NCBI GenBank assembly: GCA_964410505.1
Contig: CAYPGR010000003.1
Location: 31,809-95,808, forward strand
Direction: 5' to 3'
Length of the DNA stretch: 64,000 nucleotides
Source of the DNA: an uncultured Staphylococcaceae bacterium
Lineage (GTDB): Bacteria; Bacillota_I; Bacilli_A; RFN20; CAG-826
Part shown: positions 29,358-47,451 of the stretch, one piece after another
Layout: the number at the start of each line of letters is the position of its first letter
Position numbering within the stretch: the stretch's first letter is position 1
Notes under the pieces: generated by a model
What the model was told of the DNA's origin: nothing
Database searches by the model: none
The model's input: only the letters and a program-made list of their open reading frames with translations
Position numbers and translations under genes: made by a program

Positions 29358-31223
29358 TTAGTTAAATCTCATCATTAATCTTTCTTTTATATAATCGTTT
29401 AGTGCTTTATCTTCACAAAAAATGAAACAACCTTTTTGACCTCGTGATAACAATGTTTTATATGTATTACGAATTATTCGATCAGCTAGTTCATAGTTTT
29501 TTGAAGACTTAATTCCTTTGAGGCTTGCGTCCGACTTAGCTCGCATTTTATAATCTGTGATAACGCGACCTTCTTCAAACCTCATATCTTTTCCGATGAT
29601 AATCCCGACATAGTCAAACTCTAAACCTTGTGCTGTGTGAATGCACCCCACTTCATCAAATGAATCTTCGTCAATCGCCCAAGTGCTTGTGGAAGAAAAG
29701 TTCCATTTAGCTTTAAATCCATTGATGAGATTAATGTCATAGAGTTGGTGAGTCGGTTTATTTTTCGTCACCCACTCATAACAATAGCCTGCAATCATCC
29801 TTGCTTTATTGTTGATATGGTTTAAGTTTCGTAATTCTTCTCTCATCAAAATAGGGTCATCAAAAACACGAATATCATAATCTAAATCGAAACCATCGTA
29901 GTTAGCAGTTTCTCTGATTCCTAGTAAATGATCTAAAAATGCAATATAACCATCACTACCATTACATCTAAATTGTGAGGTGAGTTTAAAGTCATCACCA
30001 CTAAAAACTTTACTACCAAGACGTTGCGCTTGTTTCTTAATTTCTAAAATACTGCCAAAATCCTTCGTAGTAACAATCTGATCCTCGTCGATGAAGAAGA
30101 CACTCACGCGTGCCGCATTAATGATTTCTCTAATTTGGTTTTCGCCTAAATTCATAAACATTCCCGATTTCTCGTTGAGTCGGTGCGCCTCATCTACAAC
30201 TAAGCAATCAAACTCATTTGGTTTCGAATCAACATAAGCTCCTGAGCCCTTAAACATATTTTTAACATAATTTAGCTTGTAATTTCCTTGTCGCATTTTG
30301 TTGAAATAGACATTTCGTGGAGCAGCATTCTTTGTAACATAATTAACCATCATACTCTTAAACTCTGCTAAAAGATTGATCGCAATTACACTTTTACCCG
30401 TTCCAGGTCCGCCCTCAACAATTACCGTATACTTATTATTTGTCTTAATAGCATCTTCAACTAACTTCTTAACGGTTGAAAAGACGACTTTTTGTTCATC
30501 AATCATATAAAATTCTTGATTACCAGCGATCATCGAAACAATCGCATCTTGAAGGGCTTTAGAAGGTCTAATTTTCCCATGATCAATTTGGTAAAGAACT
30601 TCACCATTGTCAGATTTTGAAACATATTTCTTAATGAACTCTCTTAATTTTAATACGTCTCTTTTTAAATACATCGGTGAAACTTCCAAAATATCTTTAT
30701 ATAGATCGTTGTCGAGTTCATGTCTGAACTCTTCTCGAAAGTTATGTAAAAAACAGCAAGGATACAATTGAATTTCACTATTTTGAACGAATTCATTATA
30801 ATTTTCGATTGTCTTGGCGTATGAATAAGCTTGATAAGAAGGATGCGTAACTGCACGCATTGAACCGGCCAGGAATGTCGTTACAATGTCTTTACGACTC
30901 GTTCTTTGAGCTTCTTCCCATTGCTTTAATTCAACAATAACAACATTACTATTATCTGACTCATCTTTTCCGGAAATAATAAAATCGACTCTTTTTGAAG
31001 TAGCAGGAATTTGATATTCAATCGCCACGCGAATGTCTGTATTAATCTCATTAAAATCTAACACATTTTTCATATGTAAAAGAGAGTTGTCCCAAGCACG
31101 AAACTCAGATTCGTTATTGTTTATGATGCTTCGTTTTCTTAGTTCGGATTTAATTAATTCGGCAATAATCCCATTATCAACATCACTACTAAACTTTGCA
31201 ATTGTTCCTGAGTATACAATCAT
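29358..31223 (-). CDS. DUF2075-like protein: an N-terminal PD-(D/E)xK nuclease fold fused to a P-loop SF1-type helicase/ATPase
   Basis: RVDFIISGKD...VVIVELKQW (D...ExK). Walker A GGPGTGKS. Walker B LVVDEAH. C-terminal HTAQGLEFDYV, an SF1 motif VI-like sequence. Confidence 0.65.
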   Translation of the reverse strand: MIVYSGTIAKFSSDVDNGIIAELIKSELRKRSIINNNESEFRAWDNSLLHMKNVLDFNEINTDIRVAIEYQIPATSKRVDFIISGKDESDNSNVVIVELKQWEEAQRTSRKDIVTTFLAGSMRAVTHPSYQAYSYAKTIENYNEFVQNSEIQLYPCCFLHNFREEFRHELDNDLYKDILEVSPMYLKRDVLKLREFIKKYVSKSDNGEVLYQIDHGKIRPSKALQDAIVSMIAGNQEFYMIDEQKVVFSTVKKLVEDAIKTNNKYTVIVEGGPGTGKSVIAINLLAEFKSMMVNYVTKNAAPRNVYFNKMRQGNYKLNYVKNMFKGSGAYVDSKPNEFDCLVVDEAHRLNEKSGMFMNLGENQIREIINAARVSVFFIDEDQIVTTKDFGSILEIKKQAQRLGSKVFSGDDFKLTSQFRCNGSDGYIAFLDHLLGIRETANYDGFDLDYDIRVFDDPILMREELRNLNHINNKARMIAGYCYEWVTKNKPTHQLYDINLINGFKAKWNFSSTSTWAIDEDSFDEVGCIHTAQGLEFDYVGIIIGKDMRFEEGRVITDYKMRAKSDASLKGIKSSKNYELADRIIRNTYKTLLSRGQKGCFIFCEDKALNDYIKERLMMRFN

Positions 31224-31336: not shown

Positions 31337-32527
31337 TTACACTAAAAATCCTATCACTGCCGCTAAAACAATAATAAACGGTGCCGGTATCTTCTTTGAA
31401 AATAACAGCAAGGCACTACCAAGCACAACAACATAATTTAGTATGTTACCCGAAAGGGCAATTGATTGATTAATACCCGTTATCACTAATAAACTGGCAG
31501 CGGTCACACTGACGCCTATTAAAAAGTATTTCACCTGTGGGATAAGGCGACTCTTCTTCCAAAGCGGAAAGATAAAAAATACAAGTAAGGTTCCGGGTAA
31601 GAATATACTTAGTCCACCGACAAGACCTGCAAGGAAACTCAAATTGGTCCCTGCAAAAGACCTCGCACTCACAAATGAAGCAAAGCTAAATAATGGTCCG
31701 GGTATTGCTTGATCAATCGCATATCCAGCTAAAAAGTCATTAAGGCTAATCAAGGATTGACTCACCACTAAATCTTGAATCATTAAAGGGACAACAATTT
31801 GACCACCCCCAATGACAGAGTAGCCGTAACGATAAAATGAGGTATATAAAATCAACCAATCACTTTCGAATAGAAGAATTAAACCTTCATTAAGTAGTGC
31901 TAAGAAAACAACAATCAAAAGAATCATCCAACGGGGCTTTTCAATCTTAAGGGATGACTTTTCGTTTAGATGCGGTAAAAGATAGATCCCGCCTCCTGTT
32001 AATAATAAAAGCGGGACAACCCACATTGAATAGGGCACTAAAAAGAAGCTAAGCGCAATCATCACACCATAAAGGATTAAGTCATATTTTCTTTTTATGA
32101 CTTTAAGCGACAACTTAATAGCGGCATAAACAATAAAGCCAACGGCGGCCGCTGGTAAATAAGTTAAGATTGGTTTCCATGTCTCATTATCGGCTATTAT
32201 CCCAAAAAAGACACCAAATAAAGTCATGATGATAATCGCGGGAAGGGCCCATACTAAAAAAGTTAGTAAGGCCAACACCGGTCCCCCAACATAGTAACCA
32301 GTAGCCGTAATCGTTTGGGTGCTACTCGGTCCAGGAACGAGGGCATATAAGCCGATCATTTCGCCAAGTTCTTCTTCACTCAGATAGTTACGTTTCGTAA
32401 CGAGAATCGACGAAAAGACACCATAATGGGCTTCAGGTCCGCCATAAGAGCCTAGTGAGCACATCATGACGTCTTTTAAGAAAGTTGACCATTTTACTTT
32501 TGTTATTTGATCCATTTTAAATACCAC
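31337..32527 (-). CDS. chrA: chromate ion transporter (CHR family, two-domain)
   Basis: CHR domain signature GGPEAHYGVF...VPGPSS. About 12 TM helices. The start is more likely the second Met (MDQITK, at 32515). Confidence 0.75.
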   Translation of the reverse strand: MVFKMDQITKVKWSTFLKDVMMCSLGSYGGPEAHYGVFSSILVTKRNYLSEEELGEMIGLYALVPGPSSTQTITATGYYVGGPVLALLTFLVWALPAIIIMTLFGVFFGIIADNETWKPILTYLPAAAVGFIVYAAIKLSLKVIKRKYDLILYGVMIALSFFLVPYSMWVVPLLLLTGGGIYLLPHLNEKSSLKIEKPRWMILLIVVFLALLNEGLILLFESDWLILYTSFYRYGYSVIGGGQIVVPLMIQDLVVSQSLISLNDFLAGYAIDQAIPGPLFSFASFVSARSFAGTNLSFLAGLVGGLSIFLPGTLLVFFIFPLWKKSRLIPQVKYFLIGVSVTAASLLVITGINQSIALSGNILNYVVVLGSALLLFSKKIPAPFIIVLAAVIGFLV

Positions 32528-35393: not shown

Positions 35394-36266
35394 TTATTCA
35401 ATTTCTTCGTAATAATATGAAGTATCAACGCCTTTTAAAAATAGTTCTCTATTGTCAATCTCATCAGTCAAAGCGTTTTTAAGTATTCTTTTAATGTCCT
35501 CATCACTATTTGGACTAAGAGTCATCGCATCTAAATATTCTTTTTTCTCAATTTTTGACCAATCAACACAAACGCTCAATTCTTTCTTAAAGATTAAATC
35601 GACCCAAATACGTGTTGCCCGACCATTACCTTCCATGAAAGGGTGTGCAACATTCATTTCAATATATTTATTAACAATTTCATCAAATGTTGATTGCGGC
35701 ATTTTTTCAATTTCTCCTAAAATTTGAGGTAGAAAATCACCATTTGCAAAAACAAAACCACCTTTAGAAATCGTTTTGGTCCTTATCTTTCCAGCGAATG
35801 GGTATAGACCTTCAAATAGAAACGCATGTATTTTTAGGAGGCTGATTGTTTTCCCAATTTCATCATCTTGAATAAGATTTGATTTGAACACTTCATAGGC
35901 TTTTCTTTTGCTTTGCTCATCAAGGGGATCTAACATTCCGGTTAGCCAATTTTGAACAGCTAATTTATGTTTGGATGGCATGATTGTTACAAATAGACGC
36001 ACACCTTCTTCATTCATAACATCCGATAGGTATTTCTTGTTATCAGCAGCATATAATTTCAGTTGTCCACAAAATGAAGTCAACTCAGGATGTCTCATTT
36101 TAAACATGTTCCAATATCTTCTAGCATCACTAGAATCTAAAAGCACTTTTGTTAAATCAACAGCGGAGTACCACCATTGAGATTTGTCATGATCCCAAAC
36201 AGCTCTAACTGGTTGATTATTAAAATAGCGAATGGAATGTTTTATCATAATTAGATGATATAACAA
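35394..36266 (-). CDS. Fic-family protein (AMPylase fold) with an N-terminal Bro-N-like domain
   Basis: Fic motif HPFMEGNGRATR. N-terminus IRYFNNQPVRAVWDHDKSQWWYSAVDLTKVL resembles Bro-N. The annotated start is a TTG; an ATG lies 18 nt downstream. Confidence 0.7.
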   Translation of the reverse strand: MLYHLIMIKHSIRYFNNQPVRAVWDHDKSQWWYSAVDLTKVLLDSSDARRYWNMFKMRHPELTSFCGQLKLYAADNKKYLSDVMNEEGVRLFVTIMPSKHKLAVQNWLTGMLDPLDEQSKRKAYEVFKSNLIQDDEIGKTISLLKIHAFLFEGLYPFAGKIRTKTISKGGFVFANGDFLPQILGEIEKMPQSTFDEIVNKYIEMNVAHPFMEGNGRATRIWVDLIFKKELSVCVDWSKIEKKEYLDAMTLSPNSDEDIKRILKNALTDEIDNRELFLKGVDTSYYYEEIE

Positions 36267-36892: not shown

Positions 36893-38095
36893 ATGAGAAG
36901 AGACTTATATGAAAGGATGGTATTTATGAAAAACCATGGTGAAGAGCCAAATTATGCCGAACTAGCTCGCCGCTATAACTGCGACTATCGGACGGTAAAA
37001 CGCTACTTTGAGGGTGACGGATCACTCAAAGAGAGAAAAAAGAATCCGTCGAAACTTGATAAATTTAAAGAAATTATTGAGGATAAACTGGAACTTGGTT
37101 GTACGTATGCTTCAATCTATCACTTTATTAAAAAGCTTGGTTATGACGGTAAGTATACAATTGTTCGTGAATATGCGAATAAAGTGATAGTGATCAAAAC
37201 AAAGAAAGCAACCGTTCGTTTTGAAACGATGCCAGGATTACAAGCACAAGTTGATTGGAAAGAACACCTAACCATGATTAGTCGTGAAGGCGAGGTCTTC
37301 ACCGTGAATATCTTCCTTCTTGTTCTTGGTTATTCACGTTTAAAATTTCTAAAGCTGACCCTTGACCGTAATCAAGACACTCTAAAGGAGGCGCTGGTAG
37401 AAGGGTTCAAGTATATAGGTGGAATTCCAAAAGAGATTCTCTTCGATAATATGAAAACTGTGATTGATCAAAGTCGTTCGCACTTCATGGACGCGGTTGT
37501 TAACGAGGACTTCTACGCCTTTAGTAAGGATATGGGTTTCGAGGTAATTGCTTGTCGCGCTTATCGCCCCGAAACAAAGGGAAAAGTTGAAGCACTCGCT
37601 AAGTTTACAAGCCGCCTTCAACCTTACAACCACGACTTTGTTTCCCTTGATGAATTAAATGAAATTGTCAAAATGGTCAATGATGACATAAATCACGAAA
37701 TATCCCAAGCGACAAACGAAATCCCTCTCACTCGTCATAAAAATGAAAAAGAATACTTATTACCCTTACCACGCGCTGAACTTCTTCTTAACTTCCTTAC
37801 TAAACCACTAACAAGAATCGTTACGAAGGAGTCACTCATTACGTATCAGAATAACAAATATTCCTTGCCCCCTTATTATATCGGAAAAACTTTAACGATT
37901 AAACCATCCGCTGTTAACCTCGATATTTTTGATAACGGTGTCCTCATTATGCGCCACCCCCTCTCAAATAAAAAATACAACTACAAAAAAGAACATTATA
38001 TTGAAATTCTTAAAAGTGATGCCCTCCCCTTTAAAAATGATGATGATATTAATCGCATCGCCGAAAAGAATTTAAAACTCTACGATAATCTCTAA
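36893..38095 (+). CDS. istA: IS21-family transposase IstA
   Basis: N-terminal HTH (ELARRYNCDYRTVKRYF). DDE region typical of IstA. Confidence 0.8.
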   Translation: MRRDLYERMVFMKNHGEEPNYAELARRYNCDYRTVKRYFEGDGSLKERKKNPSKLDKFKEIIEDKLELGCTYASIYHFIKKLGYDGKYTIVREYANKVIVIKTKKATVRFETMPGLQAQVDWKEHLTMISREGEVFTVNIFLLVLGYSRLKFLKLTLDRNQDTLKEALVEGFKYIGGIPKEILFDNMKTVIDQSRSHFMDAVVNEDFYAFSKDMGFEVIACRAYRPETKGKVEALAKFTSRLQPYNHDFVSLDELNEIVKMVNDDINHEISQATNEIPLTRHKNEKEYLLPLPRAELLLNFLTKPLTRIVTKESLITYQNNKYSLPPYYIGKTLTIKPSAVNLDIFDNGVLIMRHPLSNKKYNYKKEHYIEILKSDALPFKNDDDINRIAEKNLKLYDNL

Positions 38096-38112
38096 AAGGA
38101 AAGAACACCAAA

Positions 38113-38868
38113 ATGTCCCATTATAATCAACTTATTAATAATTTAGATAACCTTAAACTCTTGAAAATGCGCGAACTCCTTCCCGCTTATCTTGATGATG
38201 CTATTATTAAAAACAAATCATTTGTTGATATTTTTAAAGAACTAACCGATCAAGAAGTTGCTTTCCGCGAAGAACGCGCACGCCTTATTAATCTTACTAT
38301 TTCGCATTTCCCCTATCACAAACGTCTCGATGATTTTGATTTTGGCTACCAACCGTCCATTAATAAAACCCAGATTCTCGATCTTGCTTCGCTTCGCTTT
38401 GTTGAACAGGTTGAAAATATCCTCCTTATCGGCAACTCCGGTGTCGGCAAAACGCACCTTGCTACCGCGCTTGGCATTGAAGCTTCCAGTAAACGCGTCT
38501 CGACCTATTTTATCCACTTTAATACACTCATGCAAAAGTTTAAAGTCGCCGCGAGTGAAGGTACCGTCGACAAAGTTGTTAAACATTATCTAAAATACAA
38601 ACTGCTTATCGTCGACGAAGTTGGCTATCTTCCTGTTGATAAAGATGCCGCGAATGGTTTCTTTCAGCTTGTCGCCGCTCGCTATGAAAGACGACCGCTA
38701 ATTATTACATCAAATTTACCACTTTCTAAATGGGGCGATGTCTTTGGTGATTATACAATCGCTAACGCTATTATTGATCGCCTTGTTCATCATTCTCACA
38801 TTATCAAAATAACCGGGCAATCCTACCGCATCAAAGGTAAACTCCAATTTGAAAATGACGAGGACTAG
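38113..38868 (+). CDS. istB: IS21-family helper ATPase IstB
   Basis: Walker A GNSGVGKTHLA and Walker B LLIVDEVGY. 17-nt spacing after istA. Confidence 0.85.
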   Translation: MSHYNQLINNLDNLKLLKMRELLPAYLDDAIIKNKSFVDIFKELTDQEVAFREERARLINLTISHFPYHKRLDDFDFGYQPSINKTQILDLASLRFVEQVENILLIGNSGVGKTHLATALGIEASSKRVSTYFIHFNTLMQKFKVAASEGTVDKVVKHYLKYKLLIVDEVGYLPVDKDAANGFFQLVAARYERRPLIITSNLPLSKWGDVFGDYTIANAIIDRLVHHSHIIKITGQSYRIKGKLQFENDED

Positions 38869-39088: not shown

Positions 39089-40084
39089 TTATTCTTGATA
39101 TCCCAGTTTTATTAATAACCCACCAATTAATGGACAGATGTTATTTGAGTTAGTTAACAAACTATTAATACCCAATAAGGAACATATTTTATTTGCTCTG
39201 CGTTTATTAGTATCTATGTAGCAGGTGGATACTCTATCTACATGCAGGGTTATTTTCCACTTGTTATCTGTTGTTTGTTCCTCTTTAAACATAATTTGCT
39301 GTACTAGTTCATGGATTTTCAATTTATATAATATTTCTTTTCCATTATTCTCATTTAAGCCAATAAGAAAATCTTTAATGGCGATTTCTTCTTTATTCTC
39401 TATTATTTTCTCATGGGCTAGGCTAGCGGCTTGTAAGAGTGCATCTACTTTAGTATCAGAAATTCCCTCTATCTCATAATTGCCAAACTTTATTGTTGCC
39501 CTATAAAAACCGTTGCCCTTGTTCTCGAGGAGCTTAAAAGAATAGGTTAACTTATTATGTTTTTTTACTTTGCACCATCTTTTAACATATAAAAAAGAGG
39601 CAAACCCTTTGTAATTAATTTGTGTTCTATGAAACAACAAATTATTCACTAAATCGTAAAGCTTAATTTGATTAAAATTAGAATCAATAGCGATGGAGCC
39701 TACAACGCTCTCGAGTAAATCTCCTCTATAAGATCTTTGGATTTGTTCATTAGGGCTTAATCTAATATAGTGTTCGAACCCCAACTTATGTATGATAGAA
39801 GCGAGATTTTCATTCTCGACAATTAGTGATTTAAGAAATGTCAATTCTCCTGGATTAAATACGCTTTTTAGACCTTGACTATCATTTGACATTATTTGAT
39901 CAAATAGAATTTTTGTAACGTGATATTCGATGACTCTATCACCAATAAATTCTAGTACTTCAGAATTAAGCTCTTTTGATTCATTTGAAAATGAACTTCT
40001 CGTAAATGCTTGTCTCAAAAGCGCTTTATTTTTGAATTCGTAATCTAATTCTTTTTCAATTTGAATAATATCTTTTTCATCCAC
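39089..40084 (-). CDS. RNase III-family protein with two C-terminal dsRBD-like modules
   Basis: RNase III signature ALLRQAFTRSS...EVLEFIGDRV. Second catalytic segment GDLLESVVGSIAID. dsRBD-like segments GNGFYRATIKFGNYEIEGISDTKVDALLQAASLA and NKWKITLHVDRVSTCYIDTNKRRANKICSLLG. Confidence 0.55.
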   Translation of the reverse strand: MDEKDIIQIEKELDYEFKNKALLRQAFTRSSFSNESKELNSEVLEFIGDRVIEYHVTKILFDQIMSNDSQGLKSVFNPGELTFLKSLIVENENLASIIHKLGFEHYIRLSPNEQIQRSYRGDLLESVVGSIAIDSNFNQIKLYDLVNNLLFHRTQINYKGFASFLYVKRWCKVKKHNKLTYSFKLLENKGNGFYRATIKFGNYEIEGISDTKVDALLQAASLAHEKIIENKEEIAIKDFLIGLNENNGKEILYKLKIHELVQQIMFKEEQTTDNKWKITLHVDRVSTCYIDTNKRRANKICSLLGINSLLTNSNNICPLIGGLLIKLGYQE

Positions 40085-40184: not shown

Positions 40185-41213
40185 TTAATTAGTAACTTCA
40201 GGTATCTCCGTTAGTCTTTTTCCATTAAATTTAAAATAAAGAGGGCCTTGATATGCTCCACTACTATTCACCTTTCCTAAACGAGTAAATAGTTCTCTTG
40301 TTAATGGCGATAAGTACCAGAGCCTACCTTCAAACATGACTTTTCGTTCATTTTCAACATAGGCAACAAAGGACTCGTTTTCAGCAAAGACAATCTCCGC
40401 CCCTTTTTTAATACCTCTTTTAAAGAAATTAAAACGCGTATTGACTTCTTCTCCATTCGTCTTATCTACCTGCTCATTGCCGCTATTTTTAATGTCTCTA
40501 GCAGCGCCAGATACAGAAACCTCAGTAATATCTTCAATGATTTTGACAAATTTAGATAATTTAATACCTTTTCCTATTTCAACATTCAAAAAATCTTTAC
40601 CTGTGGCTTCGAAGGCGAGATTTTTAATAGAATAATTTTTTAAATCATCTCCATACCGGATGCCAAACATATGCAGCATAGTCATTTGATAGCCATCAGG
40701 AGCCTCATTGTACATTTTTTTTAAAATTTCCAAGTATTCATTATAGGTCAAATGACCATTTCCTTTTGGGAGGTCTTGGAATAGAAAATTTTGTATTATT
40801 TTCTTGTTTTCTGGCCAGGCTTTAATATCCGTGAGTTGTATACTTTCAGAGTCAAAATCGAAAAATAAAAATGGGAGATTGTCTTTAGAAATCTTGAGTA
40901 AATTGTCAATATTCTTTTTTGTTTTTCGTTTGTTTTCATGGAATTTATTTGATTGCACGCTGGACATTTTCAGCAAAGTATTAAAATCGTTTGTATTTTC
41001 AATGCTAAAGTTGGAATCAAGAAAATGATTAATCGTTTCAAAAATAGCAATGTCATATATCCTATTTGATTTACTCTCCCTGATATATTTTTTGATAATT
41101 TGAGCAACTATATCATCATATGTAATTTTGACAGAATATGGATCCATCCTTTCGTCTATCAGGTCAATCAATGCACTAAAGACGTTTCTTTGGAGCGTAT
41201 TTGCGGTTTGCAT
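40185..41213 (-). CDS. hypothetical protein (342 aa), co-operonic partner of the SMC-like ATPase
   Basis: ORF. 1-nt gap to the upstream 119-aa gene. Confidence 0.4.
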   Translation of the reverse strand: MQTANTLQRNVFSALIDLIDERMDPYSVKITYDDIVAQIIKKYIRESKSNRIYDIAIFETINHFLDSNFSIENTNDFNTLLKMSSVQSNKFHENKRKTKKNIDNLLKISKDNLPFLFFDFDSESIQLTDIKAWPENKKIIQNFLFQDLPKGNGHLTYNEYLEILKKMYNEAPDGYQMTMLHMFGIRYGDDLKNYSIKNLAFEATGKDFLNVEIGKGIKLSKFVKIIEDITEVSVSGAARDIKNSGNEQVDKTNGEEVNTRFNFFKRGIKKGAEIVFAENESFVAYVENERKVMFEGRLWYLSPLTRELFTRLGKVNSSGAYQGPLYFKFNGKRLTEIPEVTN

Positions 41214-41214
41214 A

Positions 41215-41574
41215 TTAAATTATATCCACTATGGTCCAATCTTTATTATTATTGATGATATCCAGTATCTTATCTAAACCTATACTTATTACTGCTCTAA
41301 GTGCATAATCTTCATCTTTTACGTCATCATGATACAACCTAATTAACGTCCTAAAAAATTTGTCACCATCAAAATCTTCCATATGCCATTTGTTGTTTTT
41401 AAAACTGCCTTTGTATTCGTCTAGTGGCTTGTACTGGCTTAAATCAACCCTAGACAAGGCGTAACTAGCTGCAAATTTCGCTGTCGTCTTATCGTCATCA
41501 AAATATCCTTTTTCTTTAAGTTTGGCAATGCATTCATCATTGTCAACTGAAATGTTAATATCTGCTAGTGGCAT
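41215..41574 (-). CDS. small hypothetical protein (119 aa), co-operonic partner of the SMC-like ATPase
   Basis: ORF. 1-nt gaps on both sides. Confidence 0.4.
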   Translation of the reverse strand: MPLADINISVDNDECIAKLKEKGYFDDDKTTAKFAASYALSRVDLSQYKPLDEYKGSFKNNKWHMEDFDGDKFFRTLIRLYHDDVKDEDYALRAVISIGLDKILDIINNNKDWTIVDII

Positions 41575-41575
41575 A

Positions 41576-43600
41576 TTATTTCTCCCTTACATTGGTATTG
41601 AAGGAATTTCCTTCTTGATATATCTCTAATTCCTTTATTAGTTTATTACCTAAAATTGCTCTGGTTTTACTAATATCAATTTTGTCGTTATGAATCAGCA
41701 AAATCAACTGTGGTGCGATTTCATTAAATGTTTTTATTATGTTGTTTGTGTATGAATTTTGAAGAACTGAAAAGGCTGCATCAAAAAATATGGTGCCAAA
41801 TAATTGAGAGTTGTGGTTTAAACCAAAAATTAATGATAATGCTAATAAAGTATTGTATCCCGTTCCGGGAATGGGCATAATTGAATCGTCCTTCATTACA
41901 ATTTTCATGCGATAGTTTTCATTTATATGAATTTGTTTAATATCTTGATTTTCGCCCTCGATAAATTTCATGAAAATATCACTTGAAGAAATTTGAACTT
42001 TTTGTCTCATGGTAGAGATAAACTGTTCTTTAGAATTTTTGTAGGTCGTTCGCACATGATCAATTGTCTTAAGTTCATTTTCAAGATCACTAGTATCAAA
42101 ATCAGTTCCCATTTTCTTTATTAGAGCTGTAATTTTTCCATTTAATCTTTCATAATCTTTAATCAGGTTTTCATTTAGCGTTGTCTCCCATTTGCTGATT
42201 AGATTTTCTGACTGAGTTTTTTTCATAAATGCGTCCTTAAAATAGGTGTTTAAATCTGAGCCGCTTGAACTTAATTCATCACGTGTTTTTTTAGCATCGT
42301 TAAGAAGACTATGTCTTTTATTTTCGTACATGATTAAATCTTCTTGGTAACTTCTTAGCGTTTTGTCGTTAAAAAATGTCAGTTCAGAAAGTATTTTAGT
42401 AAATTTGACTATTTTATTGTTGGAATATTCATATGAAGTCATCTCGTCGCTCGATAAGGAACTTTGAGAGATTTTAAACTTGATTTCATCAACCTTGGAT
42501 TTAAAGAAAACTATTTTTTCTAAGGGTAAGTGACTACCACAATACTGACAAGTATCATTATTCAGTAGATCCTCATATGTTTTTAATTCAACTCTAAATT
42601 TATTAATTATTTGGTGTCGGTCGGAGATAAGAGAGAATTTTTCTTCCATCGTTTTAATCTCTTGTATAATTTTCGAATATTGCAGAGATTTTATATTTTC
42701 TTTTAGAAAGTTTTTAATGTCCGTTTTTCTTGATTTAATCAATGCTTCAGTGGAATTAATCTCTTTTTCAATTTTTTCCAAGTATTTGTAGGCAGCGATT
42801 TTTCTACCATTAGCGTCAAGATCTTCATTTAAACGAGTTAACTCCTCTTTTTCCTTTTCAATTTTCCTGTTTAAATCGTCAATCTCTTTCTTTTTTAAAC
42901 TCAATTCTTGTTGCTTATCCTGCAATTCTTTCTTGTCATTTTCATTTTTTGAATTTCTATTTACGATGGAAGAAATTTGATAATAGGTTTGACTATAAAG
43001 ACTGTCTAAACGAGCAATGATTCTATCAATAAATGGGGTTCCGATAATCTTGTTAATAGCTTCTTTAATTCTTCTATTTTCAGTGCCAGTAGCACTATCA
43101 TTGTTGAGAATTTCAATGTATTTTTCAATGTTTTCTCCATCAAAAAGCATAAATTCAGAGATGTCTTTTGGAATTATTTTATCAATGATATCTTGTGTAT
43201 ATTTCTCTGATTGATATTGACCATCTTCTTGCAATGTCATCGTCATCTTAAAATCATTGTCTGATTTAGGTTTTCCCATCACGTTTGAGTCAAAATTATA
43301 CTCTCTTTTCATCTTGTAAGTTTTACCATTATAGATAAACTCCATATATGCATAGAATCTATAATCTTCATTCTCGTAAGCAATTTTGTTTATAGATAAT
43401 GAAATTTTATAATTTGGGTCGTCGGGATTGTCTTTAAGATAGTTAAAAAGCAAAAACCGAATACCATTGATAAATGAAGTCTTTCCAGTATTATTATTAC
43501 CAAAAATTATAGAGGTTCCTTTATTAGATCCTAAATCAAATTCCTTGACTCCATAGTAGGGAATAAAGTTTTTGAATGATATCTTGAGTATCTGTATCAT
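41576..43600 (-). CDS. SMC/Rad50-like ABC ATPase with a long coiled-coil and a central CxxC hook-like motif
   Basis: N-terminal Walker A GNNNTGKTS. Long K/E-rich helical middle region. CQYC near the midpoint. C-terminal Walker B / D-loop IFFDAAFS. Confidence 0.7.
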   Translation of the reverse strand: MIQILKISFKNFIPYYGVKEFDLGSNKGTSIIFGNNNTGKTSFINGIRFLLFNYLKDNPDDPNYKISLSINKIAYENEDYRFYAYMEFIYNGKTYKMKREYNFDSNVMGKPKSDNDFKMTMTLQEDGQYQSEKYTQDIIDKIIPKDISEFMLFDGENIEKYIEILNNDSATGTENRRIKEAINKIIGTPFIDRIIARLDSLYSQTYYQISSIVNRNSKNENDKKELQDKQQELSLKKKEIDDLNRKIEKEKEELTRLNEDLDANGRKIAAYKYLEKIEKEINSTEALIKSRKTDIKNFLKENIKSLQYSKIIQEIKTMEEKFSLISDRHQIINKFRVELKTYEDLLNNDTCQYCGSHLPLEKIVFFKSKVDEIKFKISQSSLSSDEMTSYEYSNNKIVKFTKILSELTFFNDKTLRSYQEDLIMYENKRHSLLNDAKKTRDELSSSGSDLNTYFKDAFMKKTQSENLISKWETTLNENLIKDYERLNGKITALIKKMGTDFDTSDLENELKTIDHVRTTYKNSKEQFISTMRQKVQISSSDIFMKFIEGENQDIKQIHINENYRMKIVMKDDSIMPIPGTGYNTLLALSLIFGLNHNSQLFGTIFFDAAFSVLQNSYTNNIIKTFNEIAPQLILLIHNDKIDISKTRAILGNKLIKELEIYQEGNSFNTNVREK

Positions 43601-43794
43601 ACGTTTGACCTTTTCTTGTTGTAAGAATCAATTAGTTGCTTAATGCTATTGTTTTTTTCTTGATCGGAGGCATTATTAAGTTCAATATCTAGAATATTTG
43701 TCAACAGCAAAAAATAATTTTCATCAGCATTTGACATTTCCTCCAAAGTTTCTTTAATGTTTTTAATCGTTTTTTCATTCATCTTCAAAACCAT
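43597..43794 (-). CDS. small ORF (65 aa), translationally coupled between the helicase and the SMC-like ATPase genes
   Basis: ATGA overlap with the downstream gene start. Overlaps the upstream gene's stop by 20 nt. Confidence 0.3.
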   Translation of the reverse strand: MVLKMNEKTIKNIKETLEEMSNADENYFLLLTNILDIELNNASDQEKNNSIKQLIDSYNKKRSNV

Positions 43795-46132
43795 CCTCTT
43801 CGTTATTTATTTTTTCAATATCTAAATTGTTTTTTATTGCCAATTCCTCAATACTCAACATAGATGTGGCACTATTAAATGAAGCCTTGGCAAAAATTAT
43901 TGCTCTTTTCAACTCGTACTTTAAAAATGTGAATTCATCTCCGGAAGATTCCAGATTTTCAGGCGAAACAATCGCATCAAAAATATGGGCAAACTGTTTG
44001 TTTTTATGCTTTCTTAATACCCTCCCACGTCTTTGAATAAATTGTCTCTCATTTTGACTTGAGGCCAGCACTAAGGCATGGTCTATGCTGGGAATGTCAA
44101 CTCCCTCATCCAAACAATTAATTGACAGTAAAACTCCTCCATTTCTCTCGAAAACTTCAAGAACTTGGTTATGTAACCCACTCTTTGAATGATAAATAAA
44201 CAAGTCGTTATGAAACAATCTACTAAGTTTTGATTCAAGTTGGTTCTTGATTTCTTCTAACTGTTCAATGTCATCACAGTATATTAACCATCTTTGACCT
44301 GGAAGATAATGGTCTTCAATAATCTTAAGGGTCAACAAAATTTTAGCCTTAGCTTTTTTGATAATTTTTGATCTTTGGATTAGCCATTGCTTCATAATTG
44401 AATCAGATAAAATATCGAAAATTGAGTATTTTTGAGATTTGAGCAATGCAAATCTGCGAGCAATTTTGGTTGATAGTTCTTGATATTCAACGCCCTCTAT
44501 AAGATCAAGTTCAACTTTTTGGGGGTAATAAAGATAATTGCATAAAGATTTATCTCTAATAGCATTTTCTAAAGAATAAGGATAGTCGATAACCTTTCCA
44601 AAAAAATCAAAGATCTTTTTTGTTCCAATTGAGTCTCTATACCTTTTAGGAGTAGCGCTCAACCCTATCTTTGAACCCACATTGATGGTTAATAAATTAC
44701 TGTATTTTTCCGATCCAGAATTATGAACTTCATCAATCACCAGCAACAAATGATTTCCTTGGCAAAGTAAGTTAATAAAATTGTTATTGCTAGCTGTTTG
44801 GATTGTACTTAAAATAATTTTTCTTTTGCCTGTAATTGAGGAAGCAATCTTGAGATTTGTAGTGCTGTCATTTCCATTCCCATATTGATACAAGAATACA
44901 TCGTCGCCGAATACTTTTTCAATTTCTTCTTTCCACTGTTCAAATAAAATGCTCCTTGGCACAATTATAATTGGGATTTGATCATGGAGATAAATGGCAT
45001 CTCTAATTGCGCAAAAAGCAGTAAATGTTTTTCCGCTTCCCGTGGCCATTTCAAAAATTCCGACTCGATTGTTTTTAACCCAATTATCAAGAATGGTCTC
45101 TTGGTAATTCCTTATCTTACGGCGGTTTAGCCCCGGCTCTGCCGCCCATCTAATTACTGTAATTTCTCGCTCGTCCAATGTTTGATTTGTGTAGTTGGAC
45201 TTGAGAACTATTTTTTGATTTCCATAAGAAATAGCTTGAATTGTGTGTTTATCATTATCTAATACAAGTATTTTATGGTCATCAACAAGTTCAATGACTA
45301 CATCATTAAGACTAGAACAATGTAAAACCCCAATTTTAGCAACTTCGCCAAGAACCAAATCAGAATATTGTATGTCAATTCTTGGCGATTTTTCATCAAT
45401 ATGTCCTAACTCAATTGTGACCTCATCGATTAATTCACGGACATTTTTGTCGTTACTGAGCGCACGAAATTTATCTTTCGTAACTTTCGGAATTTCAAAA
45501 GTATGAATACCTTTTTCATCTCCTCGCCAAATGTTATTAAATCTTTCTTTGTAAATACTAACTCTTTTAATCTCTGATGCATCACCCCAGGAAGTATTAA
45601 CCTCAAAGACTTCACTATTGCCAAATTCTGAGACACCTTTGTAAGTTTCATTGATTGATCCACCAAAACTAACTGTGTTCCCATTTACATCATGAAATAA
45701 ACCAACTTTATCGTGAAGCAGTTTGAATGCCAAAGGGTTGTCGCCAAAAACCGCCATTTTTATTTCAAGTATTCCCAATGAGATTAGATTAGAAAGTAAA
45801 GTTGTAGTTTTAGGATATTGCTTGCTCATTTCATCAATAACTTCATTGAATTTATTTGATGAGGAATCTAGTGATTTAAAATACCCGGAAATTATGGCGT
45901 CATAATCCTCGTCAGTTATTATAGGGGAGCATACAATACGTATTTTTCCATTATTTTGAACAAAATCTTTTAAGGCATCCTTGATAACAAGGAAAACAGA
46001 ACTGCCAAAATAGCCCGTGATTCTATCATATTTAATTGAAGATTCTAAACAGGGTTTATAAAAATCTCGATAGATTTCATTTCTAGTTTTGTAATATATT
46101 TGGTGAAAATTATGCTTGTCGAGGGTTTGCAT
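43775..46132 (-). CDS. restriction-type enzyme: N-terminal PLD-family (HKD) nuclease fused to an SF2 (type III res-like) helicase
   Basis: PLD motif LLHDKVGLFHD...GGSINET. Helicase motif I MATGSGKTFTA, motif II LLVIDEVHN, motif III LSATPKR and motif VI QRRGRVLR. The start is assigned to MQTLDK, 7 nt after the methyltransferase stop. Confidence 0.7.
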   Translation of the reverse strand: MQTLDKHNFHQIYYKTRNEIYRDFYKPCLESSIKYDRITGYFGSSVFLVIKDALKDFVQNNGKIRIVCSPIITDEDYDAIISGYFKSLDSSSNKFNEVIDEMSKQYPKTTTLLSNLISLGILEIKMAVFGDNPLAFKLLHDKVGLFHDVNGNTVSFGGSINETYKGVSEFGNSEVFEVNTSWGDASEIKRVSIYKERFNNIWRGDEKGIHTFEIPKVTKDKFRALSNDKNVRELIDEVTIELGHIDEKSPRIDIQYSDLVLGEVAKIGVLHCSSLNDVVIELVDDHKILVLDNDKHTIQAISYGNQKIVLKSNYTNQTLDEREITVIRWAAEPGLNRRKIRNYQETILDNWVKNNRVGIFEMATGSGKTFTAFCAIRDAIYLHDQIPIIIVPRSILFEQWKEEIEKVFGDDVFLYQYGNGNDSTTNLKIASSITGKRKIILSTIQTASNNNFINLLCQGNHLLLVIDEVHNSGSEKYSNLLTINVGSKIGLSATPKRYRDSIGTKKIFDFFGKVIDYPYSLENAIRDKSLCNYLYYPQKVELDLIEGVEYQELSTKIARRFALLKSQKYSIFDILSDSIMKQWLIQRSKIIKKAKAKILLTLKIIEDHYLPGQRWLIYCDDIEQLEEIKNQLESKLSRLFHNDLFIYHSKSGLHNQVLEVFERNGGVLLSINCLDEGVDIPSIDHALVLASSQNERQFIQRRGRVLRKHKNKQFAHIFDAIVSPENLESSGDEFTFLKYELKRAIIFAKASFNSATSMLSIEELAIKNNLDIEKINNEEDGFEDE

Positions 46133-46139
46133 TTTCGTC

Positions 46140-47006
46140 CTACACTGGATTCCGATTTGAAATATTATGAATAGACATCTGACAAAACTCTTCAGAAATT
46201 TCAAAACCGATAAATTTCCTGTTATTATTAAGCGCGACCACTCCAGTTGTTCCACTTCCAGTCCATGGATCAAGTACGATATCGCCCTCCTGCGTACATG
46301 CTCGAATATACCTTTCGGGCAAGTAATTCGGTTGGACAGCTTGATGATTGACCACTTTTCCTGATACTGCACCACTAATCACATTTATCGGTAATGCACC
46401 TAGAGGGTTAGGAAAAATTTTCTTTTCTTTTGTGACATATTGCAATTTATTCTGCCTTGGTTTATAAATCACATTCTCATAGGATTTGATAGAAGATTCT
46501 TTGTAAGGTCTTCTAATCTGATCTATATTGATAACCCATTTTGAGGATTTAGAAAACCACAGGTTATACTCATAAGCATCAATCGTCGCAACTCTTACTC
46601 CTGTGGGAACAGGATTTGTTTTTGCCCAGATTTCAATATCAACACAATACAATTTTAGTACCTTTTTCATATGAATCATTAGTTCTTCGATGACTAACGA
46701 TCGCTCCGATGATGTGGTTTTTGTTCCTTGAACTCGATTTGATTTGACATTAATGACAATAAATCCATCATCAGTTAATTTTGGAATTAAAAACTTAATA
46801 AATGGGCTTATTTCTTTTATATAGTTTTCAATCTTCCATGTTCTATAGTTTCTTTTTGCATTTGGATAAGGAGGTGACCCATAAACTAATTTTATGGACT
46901 TATCTTTCAGATGCTTTATGAGTTTTACACCGTCTCCGTGGGTAACAGAAAAATTACGACTATCTAAATCTTCGTATATGTTGATAGTAGTATTTTGGTG
47001 TAACAT
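46140..47006 (-). CDS. beta-class DNA methyltransferase (N4-cytosine / N6-adenine type)
   Basis: Motif IV GSPPYPN near the N-terminus and motif I LDPWTGSGTTGVVA near the C-terminus. Confidence 0.8.
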   Translation of the reverse strand: MLHQNTTINIYEDLDSRNFSVTHGDGVKLIKHLKDKSIKLVYGSPPYPNAKRNYRTWKIENYIKEISPFIKFLIPKLTDDGFIVINVKSNRVQGTKTTSSERSLVIEELMIHMKKVLKLYCVDIEIWAKTNPVPTGVRVATIDAYEYNLWFSKSSKWVINIDQIRRPYKESSIKSYENVIYKPRQNKLQYVTKEKKIFPNPLGALPINVISGAVSGKVVNHQAVQPNYLPERYIRACTQEGDIVLDPWTGSGTTGVVALNNNRKFIGFEISEEFCQMSIHNISNRNPV

Positions 47007-47364: not shown

Positions 47365-47451
47365 TGGTGCCTCCGGTCGGACTCGAACCGACACAGTATC
47401 GCTACTATTGGATTTTGAGTCCAACGCGTCTACCAATTTCACCACGGAGGC
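47365..47451 (-). tRNA. tRNA-Leu (anticodon CAA), long variable arm, CCA encoded
   Basis: Reverse complement is GCCTCCGTGGTGAAATTGGTAGACGCGTTGGACTCAAAATCCAATAGTAGCGATACTGTGTCGGTTCGAGTCCGACCGGAGGCACCA. Confidence 0.85.

Follow-up and report, generated by a model that had tools for sequence, protein, structure and literature searches.

The locus studied here raises the question of whether a Rad50-like ABC ATPase and the small proteins encoded next to it, found in the genome of an uncultured Staphylococcaceae bacterium (GTDB lineage CAG-826), make up a defense module of their own or a version of a system that has already been described. The window analyzed is the whole stretch of 64,000 nucleotides at positions 31,809–95,808 of contig CAYPGR010000003.1 (assembly GCA_964410505.1), and all coordinates below refer to it. 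A first-pass annotation, made from the sequence alone, had proposed that positions 40185–43794 encode an uncharacterized ABC-ATPase module coupled to restriction-modification (R-M) genes. We regard the region, with high confidence, as one composite six-gene system of the methylase-linked PbeABCD type, also termed the CxC ABC-ATPase–DndE type, while the individual steps of the mechanism considered below are less certain than this family assignment. The module thus belongs to an already described family and is not an undescribed one; the departures from that family are modest, namely the absence of MTaX1 and the presence of a sixth gene for a protein with an RptR-type helix-turn-helix (HTH) and a RAMA-like domain. 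All six genes are labeled "hypothetical protein" in the annotation of the source metagenome-assembled genome.

Six co-oriented open reading frames (ORFs) occupy the minus strand between 47006 and 40185, downstream of a minus-strand tRNA-Leu(CAA) gene predicted by ARAGORN (47365..47451). The first encodes a methyltransferase (MTase) of 288 aa (47006..46140) and is followed by the genes for PbeA, a nuclease-helicase of 785 aa (46132..43775), for a 65-aa protein in the PbeB position (43794..43597), for PbeC, the ABC ATPase of 674 aa (43600..41576), for PbeD, a DndE-like protein of 119 aa with a tandem ribbon-helix-helix (RHH) fold (41574..41215), and for a protein of 342 aa (41213..40185). The four ORFs on which the first-pass annotation had centered are real and lie on the minus strand, after the MTase and helicase genes as it held, but the operon starts earlier than 43794, at the MTase gene (47006). 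Nor does the ATPase come first in the gene order, as had been proposed, since PbeA and the small protein precede it. Direct reading of the junctions bore out the ATGA shared by the stop of the 65-aa ORF and the start of the 674-aa ORF, as well as the 1-nt gaps at the 674/119 and 119/342 junctions, both of which read TAA-T-ATG. The 65-aa ORF begins before the PbeA gene has ended, and the junction between the MTase stop and the ATG of PbeA at 46132 spans 7 nt. The ORF lister had placed the start of PbeA at a GTG inside the MTase gene (46375); the ATG at 46132 is the most likely start and matches the gene calls on an identical contig (L001). A second in-frame ATG at 43782 of the 65-aa ORF would give a 61-aa product, and the counterpart in a related locus (L005), called as 64 aa, begins at the Met equivalent to 43782. 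Altogether, the six genes are translationally coupled. A scan for an operon promoter and terminator gave results at chance level.

The family assignment is carried by PbeC and PbeA. In the PADLOC search, which the first-pass annotation had suggested, the ATPase matched PbeC with an E-value of 4.1e-79 (residues 5–642) and DndD with one of 5.9e-29, and PbeA was matched at 3.5e-183. The 674-aa protein bears GNNNTGKT (Walker A) at residue 34 and CQYC at residues 351–354, both as first read, together with IFFD/FFDAAFS at 604–611. The last motif, the Walker B/D-loop region, had been placed at the extreme C-terminus; it is near the end, 63–66 residues before the C-terminus. An insert of approximately 360 residues forms a coiled coil with the CxxC hook at its apex, and no extra domain is fused to the protein, in agreement with the earlier view that it carries no effector. 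As C351 and C354 are invariant in the seven PbeC homologues aligned, down to 20% identity, we regard the CxxC as a conserved feature rather than a chance match; the zinc hook itself is a prediction only. The PADLOC assignment and the invariant CxxC uphold the notion of a defense module centered on an ABC ATPase that has a coiled coil and bears a Cys hook. The closest solved relatives of PbeC are Rad50 heads, and the structure comparison of PbeC and PbeA found no Pbe protein among solved structures.

The first-pass annotation had also likened the locus to Lamassu, ABC-three-component (ABC-3C), PARIS and Septu systems, and a divergent member of one of these would share with it the general layout of an ABC/SMC-like ATPase with small partners, and only that. 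Against this stand the PADLOC families listed for the ATPase (25 of the 32 matched), all of which are PbeC or DndD. The 65-, 119- and 342-aa proteins gave no match to LmuA/C, AriB or PtuB in PADLOC; a single PtuB match (E = 0.003) was at chance level and fell on an unrelated RNase III-like ORF, and the partners present are an HKD-helicase and a DndE-fold protein instead. We therefore give these analogies next to no chance of being correct. The same three small products had no match to a Pbe component in PADLOC-DB either.

PbeA is a fusion of an HKD (phospholipase D-type) nuclease domain to a superfamily 2 (SF2) helicase, with ResIII, Helicase_C and phospholipase D (PLD)-type matches. Intact motifs are present for both the nuclease (HDK at residue 140, GSIN at 158) and the helicase (I, II, III and VI, with GSGKT at 365, DEVH at 467 and QRRGRVLR at 700), and XPB/RAD25 are the closest solved helicases. 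PbeA is predicted to be a translocating effector. In NCBIfam, PbeA matched dnd_restrict_1 ("DNA phosphorothioation system restriction enzyme") at E = 3.6e-96 with 323 bits (cutoff 600), and PbeC matched TIGR03185 (DndD) at E = 5e-18 with 65 bits (cutoff 246). As these scores fall under the curated cutoffs, we consider PbeA and PbeC as relatives, not equivalogs, of the NCBIfam families.

The reference system is dndCDEA-pbeABCD, which in a haloarchaeon confers protection from the virus SNJ1 (Xiong et al., 2019; PMC6459918). In that system pbeB, pbeC and pbeD are each essential for protection and pbeA is partly required (PMC6459918); PbeB of Haloterrigena is a rapidly evolving small protein of 66 aa, yet essential (PMC6459918, PMC10853773). 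Rakesh et al. (2024; PMC10853773) re-annotated PbeA to PbeD as an HKD and SF2 helicase protein, a small disordered protein, an ABC ATPase with a "CxC" Zn-hook and a DndE cognate, respectively, and noted that in some such systems C5 or circularly permuted N4-cytosine methylases stand in for the phosphorothioate (PT) genes, often with MTaX1. The methylase-linked CxC–DndE association was also described computationally by Krishnan, Burroughs, Iyer and Aravind (2020; Nucleic Acids Research 48:10045), as relayed in PMC10853773. Our literature search found no experimental study of a methylase-linked Pbe system. The PADLOC models of the family of PbeABCD from Haloterrigena jeotgali / Natrinema A29 match PbeA and PbeC of the window strongly. 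On the other hand, archaeal PbeABCD is coupled to phosphorothioation by dndCDEA, whereas the window has a beta-class MTase, no dndC homologue and a sixth gene (HTH_73/RAMA-like) beyond the archaeal four. The window differs from DndABCDE as well: PbeC scores below the DndD cutoff, the Pfam DndE model is unmatched and partners corresponding to dndA and dndC are absent. Moreover, PbeC has the CxxC hook, which DndD lacks (PMC10853773). The closest likeness is to the methylase-linked CxC–DndE systems, which have the same core plus a circularly permuted N4-cytosine-type MTase, a layout found in many of the 80 loci described below.

Word-indexed homologue searches gave only 5, 14 and 7 matches to the 119-, 342- and 674-aa proteins, respectively, and synteny was therefore assessed on genome and metagenome contigs retrieved by pattern scans. 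A scan based on the PbeC alignment over one genome per GTDB species yielded 80 distant loci from many bacterial phyla and archaea (PbeC identity of 20–26%). Seven loci formed a closer clade, comprising the exact copy (L001) and L002–L005, L086 and L087, with the PbeC identity of the divergent copies ranging from 54% down to 31%. The gene order in this clade is MTase, PbeA, small ORF, PbeC, an ORF of 119–123 aa and an HTH_73 protein. Across the distant loci, PbeA was directly upstream of PbeC and co-oriented in 76 of 80, with or without the MTase, the exceptions being contig ends (L006, L022 and L076) and L045. An ORF of 45–96 aa separated PbeA and PbeC in 73 of the 83 loci with a PbeC match (68 of the 78 distant ones), and an ORF of 109–170 aa was directly downstream of PbeC in 76 of the 78 distant loci with a PbeC match. 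The core of PbeA, small ORF, PbeC and PbeD is thus conserved across phyla, and the window contains all four genes in this order. An N6_N4 MTase homologue was detected in 49 of the 80 distant loci, usually directly upstream of the cassette, and in four loci dndC-, dndD- and dndE-like genes take the place of the MTase, which is the original PT-linked PbeABCD layout. The co-occurrence check suggested by the first-pass annotation was thus borne out for the 119-aa gene; a counterpart of the 342-aa gene was found in the seven clade loci, and in other loci this slot is empty or holds other proteins.

These data bear on whether the locus comprises two stacked systems, a Type III/ISP-like R-M pair (MTase and PLD-helicase) and a separate ABC-ATPase module (the 65-, 674-, 119- and 342-aa proteins). 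Stacking of systems is common in defense islands, approximately 40% of the related loci lack the MTase, and a PLD-helicase could in principle restrict alone; a weak PADLOC match of PbeA to PLD_Helicase (E = 4.5e-13) fits such a role. The conserved adjacency and co-orientation of PbeA and PbeC across distant loci, regardless of whether an MTase is present, argues instead that the PLD-helicase is integral to the ABC-ATPase system. In addition, the genes of the window overlap or lie 1–7 nt apart, and pbeA–D act together genetically in the characterized system (PMC6459918). We consider two stacked systems very improbable, and the earlier idea that the MTase and helicase genes belong to one composite unit stands.

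The two small core proteins gave no family match in Pfam, NCBIfam or PADLOC, and their assignment relies on position, charge and fold. The 65-aa protein has a net charge of -2, and the small ORFs occupying the PbeB slot have a median length of 69 aa and are acidic in 90% of the cases. Close homologues of the 65-aa protein were found in L002 and L005 (E = 3e-10 and 1e-15, respectively). The 119-aa protein, encoded directly after the ATPase, was found by fold comparison to have the tandem RHH fold of DndE. By phmmer it matched, in 20 distant loci, the ORF that immediately follows PbeC, and a profile of its family retrieved 35 representatives, nearly all of 115–131 aa, in a full-library search. 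No DndE was matched when the family profile was run against PDB sequences. As the sequence link to canonical DndE is weak, we name the protein a DndE-fold PbeD cognate, not a member of Pfam DndE. A separate observation on this family is that residues 2579–2611 of a protein of 3655 aa (P0029) match the first RHH unit of its profile (E = 1.6e-16).

One feature that distinguishes the window from the archaeal system is its modification gene. The 288-aa protein belongs to Pfam N6_N4_Mtase (E = 1.2e-42), and its SPPY motif (motif IV, residue 44) is N-terminal to DPWTGSG (motif I, residue 246), a motif order by which it is a beta-class (circularly permuted) MTase. The SPPY motif indicates N4-cytosine methylation, and we predict from it that the enzyme is N4-cytosine-specific. 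In L002, L005 and L086 the same cassette begins with orthologues of 62–68% identity, and an MTase opens the cassette in every clade member for which upstream sequence is available. The neighborhood thus contains the circularly permuted N4-cytosine-type MTase of the methylase-linked CxC–DndE subtype. Comparison of the window ORFs with the proteins in the DndC position of four PT-linked loci (L055, L064, L074 and L082) revealed no dndC homologue; the N6_N4 MTase occupies the modification slot and the dndCDEA/phosphorothioate linkage is absent.

In another reading, PbeC and PbeD mainly serve modification by guiding the small MTase, which has no recognizable target-recognition or RAMA domain, to specific sites, as DndD and DndE do for DndC. 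The 342-aa protein, through its RAMA-like domain, would then provide in trans the kind of DNA-binding domain that is part of CcrM in cis, and PbeA would be the sole restriction component. Approximately 40% of the related loci, however, have the PbeA–D core with no MTase homologue detected, and in Haloterrigena PbeB, PbeC and PbeD are needed for restriction while a separate DndDE pair handles modification (PMC6459918). Furthermore, the other HTH_73 proteins of the clade carry unrelated C-terminal domains or none, and a trans-RAMA role therefore cannot be general. We judge a guided MTase unlikely.

Under the composite-system assignment, the operon would be a restriction-like system against phages and plasmids. 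The MTase would mark host DNA, probably with N4-methylcytosine, in place of the PT mark of the archaeal dndCDEA. PbeC may dimerize through the Cys hook and form, together with the tandem RHH of PbeD, a DNA-scanning and site-recognition module, which on unmarked DNA would license translocation by PbeA, followed by cutting of the DNA or a block of its replication. The small acidic protein could be a required regulator or adaptor, like PbeB in Haloterrigena. The 342-aa protein may act either as a repressor of the operon, like RptR for Type I R-M islands, or as an auxiliary reader of DNA or its modification state, as has been proposed for the MTaX1 protein found in most of the methylase-linked relatives but not in this clade.

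An abortive-infection mechanism would use the same parts differently: the small acidic protein would restrain PbeA, interference by a phage would free PbeA onto host DNA, and methylation would be irrelevant to the discrimination of self from non-self. Such a role of the small protein is an alternative model in PMC10853773, and viral DNA is not detectably degraded by the archaeal Pbe system (PMC6459918). Nevertheless, a dedicated MTase opens the cassette in the window and in all clade members with upstream sequence, and PT-modified virus escapes the archaeal system (PMC6459918). The latter observation leads us to favor discrimination by modification, and we find abortive infection quite improbable.

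Each of the seven clade loci has a counterpart of the sixth gene, even where PbeC identity falls to 31%, with a start that overlaps the PbeD stop or adjoins it. The fold analysis that the first-pass annotation had suggested, which gave the DndE fold for the 119-aa protein, divided the 342-aa protein into a helical module (residues 1–150), an RptR-type HTH_73 domain (157–225) and a RAMA-like alpha+beta domain (approximately 260–342). The protein matched Pfam HTH_73 at E = 4.3e-20. A profile of 22 HTH_73 domains run against PDB sequences matched RptR (PDB 9r2z) at E = 2.8e-6, by which we regard HTH_73 as belonging to the RptR family; fold comparison also linked the 342-aa protein to RptR, so that both sequence and fold place the helical DNA-binding domain of RptR at residues 157–225. 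Residues 14–232, covering the helical module and HTH_73, share 31–37% identity among clade members, and the remainder differs in length: the C-terminal part is approximately 85 aa in the window, approximately 270 aa in P0011, L005 and L086 and approximately 400 aa in L002, and is absent in L087. MAFFT alignments that mixed homologues of the N- and C-terminal fragments were misaligned.

RptR is a 78-aa repressor of an enteropathogenic Escherichia coli (EPEC) island with Type I R-M and DarTG that binds TAGCTA repeats (PMC12255303), and it shows a strong association with genes of Type I R-M systems (Zhang et al., 2025; PMC12255303). Whereas RptR stands alone and comes first in its island, its relative here is a domain inside the 342-aa product of the last gene, and a repressor role would hold by analogy. 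An HTH that was described in 2025 as a free-standing repressor of islands with Type I R-M is thus found as a domain of a larger protein in a different defense family. As for the C-terminal domain, RAMA domains are known from MPND (7ydt) and CcrM (6pbd), bind the backbone of double-stranded DNA and are poorly conserved in sequence (PMC9963953). The domain of the 342-aa protein has no detectable sequence similarity to those of CcrM and MPND, and it is fused to an HTH, or in PDC-S57 to a T5orf172/GIY-YIG-like domain, not to a methylase. The last approximately 120 residues of the 342-aa protein are 73% identical to the C-terminus of T5orf172/MUG113 proteins of 200–220 aa, which correspond to the PADLOC candidate PDC-S57; the RAMA-like domain thus appears common to the two.

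The 73% identity to one of these proteins (P0008) spans 123 aligned residues, of which the last approximately 80 are near-identical, and this near-identity suggests a recent domain exchange. The GIY-YIG-like T5orf172/MUG113 proteins P0007 (304 aa) and P0008–P0019 carry the RAMA-like C-terminal domain, with two tandem copies in P0007. Elsewhere in the metagenomic data, most other HTH_73 matches are stand-alone proteins of approximately 75 aa. One protein (L109:2-943) has two tandem HTH_73 domains and a C-terminal GYDF…EVKG motif that resembles, by eye, a PD-(D/E)xK nuclease.

The methylase-linked relatives often have MTaX1 directly upstream of PbeA, whereas the clade has instead the HTH_73 gene after PbeD. 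MTaX1 (Pfam PF20296) was found in 26 of the 30 ORFs of approximately 180 aa directly upstream of PbeA in related loci, and a hidden Markov model built from MTaX1 ORFs detected it in approximately 37 of the 80 loci. The best match of this model in the window had an E-value of 1, and none was found in L001–L005, L086 and L087. A further reading makes the HTH_73 protein more than a repressor: a sixth functional subunit that would serve as a swappable reader of DNA or its modification state, replace MTaX1 and, with PbeC and PbeD, decide on the release of PbeA on DNA lacking N4-methylcytosine. Its exchangeable C-terminal domain would be RAMA-like here, of two other unrelated kinds in relatives and absent in L087. 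We put this forward as a tentative and rather doubtful proposal. If it is true, the window would provide a bacterial, methylation-dependent and genetically tractable Pbe system that could show how Pbe systems stop replication.

Outside the clade, the position following PbeD is either vacant or taken by other DNA-binding proteins. A protein of approximately 830–1015 aa with Sigma70_r4, RNA_pol_A_CTD and HARE-HTH occupies it in 29 of 46 related loci (L013, L014, L021, L034, L047, L048 and others), and looks like a recurrent and apparently uncharacterized accessory of proteobacterial Pbe-type systems.

Several observations weigh against the assignment and mechanism favored here. The characterized Pbe system depends on phosphorothioation (PMC6459918), and for the operon in the window we infer the defensive role, the specificity of methylation and the dependence on methylation. 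In residues 579–613, PbeC of the clade has GTGYN where distant homologues have SAGxE, and in the D-loop FDAAFSVLQ where these have MDSPFGRLD; the divergent signature and D-loop may have altered the chemistry of the ATP site. The cutting step by PbeA is uncertain in spite of its intact HKD motif, because the archaeal system shows no detectable cleavage of viral DNA (PMC6459918). A profile of the distant PbeB-position ORFs matched the 65-aa ORF at an E-value of 0.014, which is not significant, as expected of the "rapidly evolving small protein" PbeB. The link between PbeD and DndE is weak, consisting of the fold plus a weak hhalign match: comparison of the 119-aa family with four canonical DndE sequences gave a probability of 47% over the first RHH unit only, and the Pfam DndE model matched none of the 73 PbeD family members. 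In the sixth protein, the C-terminal domain appears RAMA-like by the modeled fold only, through structure matches whose output does not list the residues aligned, and a profile search of this domain for RAMA, CcrM and MPND returned only spurious armadillo-repeat matches. The AlphaFold2 model, made from a shallow alignment of 12 sequences, has a predicted local distance difference test score above 90 for residues 260–340 and a moderate one for 157–225, but is poor and unreliable for residues 1–130. Finally, no convincing operator-like repeats or palindromes common to the promoters of the window, L002, L005 and L086 were found, which bears on the repressor role of the 342-aa protein.

Pbe-type systems are widespread, and a single genome scan in this study yielded over 200 matching loci. 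The one Pbe system that has been studied experimentally is archaeal and phosphorothioate-dependent, and the restriction event of Pbe systems "remains obscure" according to a 2025 review (PMC12707154). Experiments would be easier on a methylation-dependent version as compact as six genes: methylome sequencing can read its self mark directly, and its MTase can be provided in trans.

The cassette lies in an island of low G+C content, 0.28–0.35 as against 0.40–0.46 in the flanking alanine dehydrogenase (Ald) and MsrA genes, of which tRNA-Leu(CAA) marks the upstream edge. No tRNA-Leu-derived direct repeat of at least 12 nt was found at the far boundary. The far edge may be marked by an IS21 element on the plus strand (36893–38868), encoding IstA with rve and Mu-transposase C-terminal domains and IstB (E = 3.7e-74), which is situated just beyond an RNase III-like gene. 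In two relatives the surroundings are phage-like. L086 is a prophage-like contig (IMG/VR UViG_3300005326_000711) with the cassette between a replication-initiation gene upstream and small-terminase and ParB-MTase genes downstream, and the cassette of L005 is preceded by ANT and Lin1244_N genes. From these contexts, we regard the HTH_73-linked Pbe cassette as moving on mobile elements.

The RNase III-like ORF (39089–40084, minus strand, GTG start) encodes 331 aa with a match to Pfam Ribonuclease_3 (E = 6e-14), lies downstream of the 342-aa gene at a distance of 100 nt and shows an island-like G+C content of 0.305. It scored 104 bits against TIGR02191 (cutoff 166), with a weak double-stranded RNA-binding domain and approximately 100 extra C-terminal residues. 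We considered this gene as a part of the cassette and rejected it, as it is present in L001 but does not follow the cassette in L002, L005 and L086; it may be either the host rnc gene or a passenger of the island. Further along, a Fic/DOC-family protein is encoded in the same low-G+C stretch (35394–36266, minus strand), as is a Schlafen-group-3-type helicase of 621 aa (29358–31223, minus strand; SLFN-g3_helicase, E = 8e-94). These two are possibly further defense or toxin genes, and the cassette with the IS21 element, the Fic/DOC gene and the SLFN-like helicase is in a typical defense-island setting.

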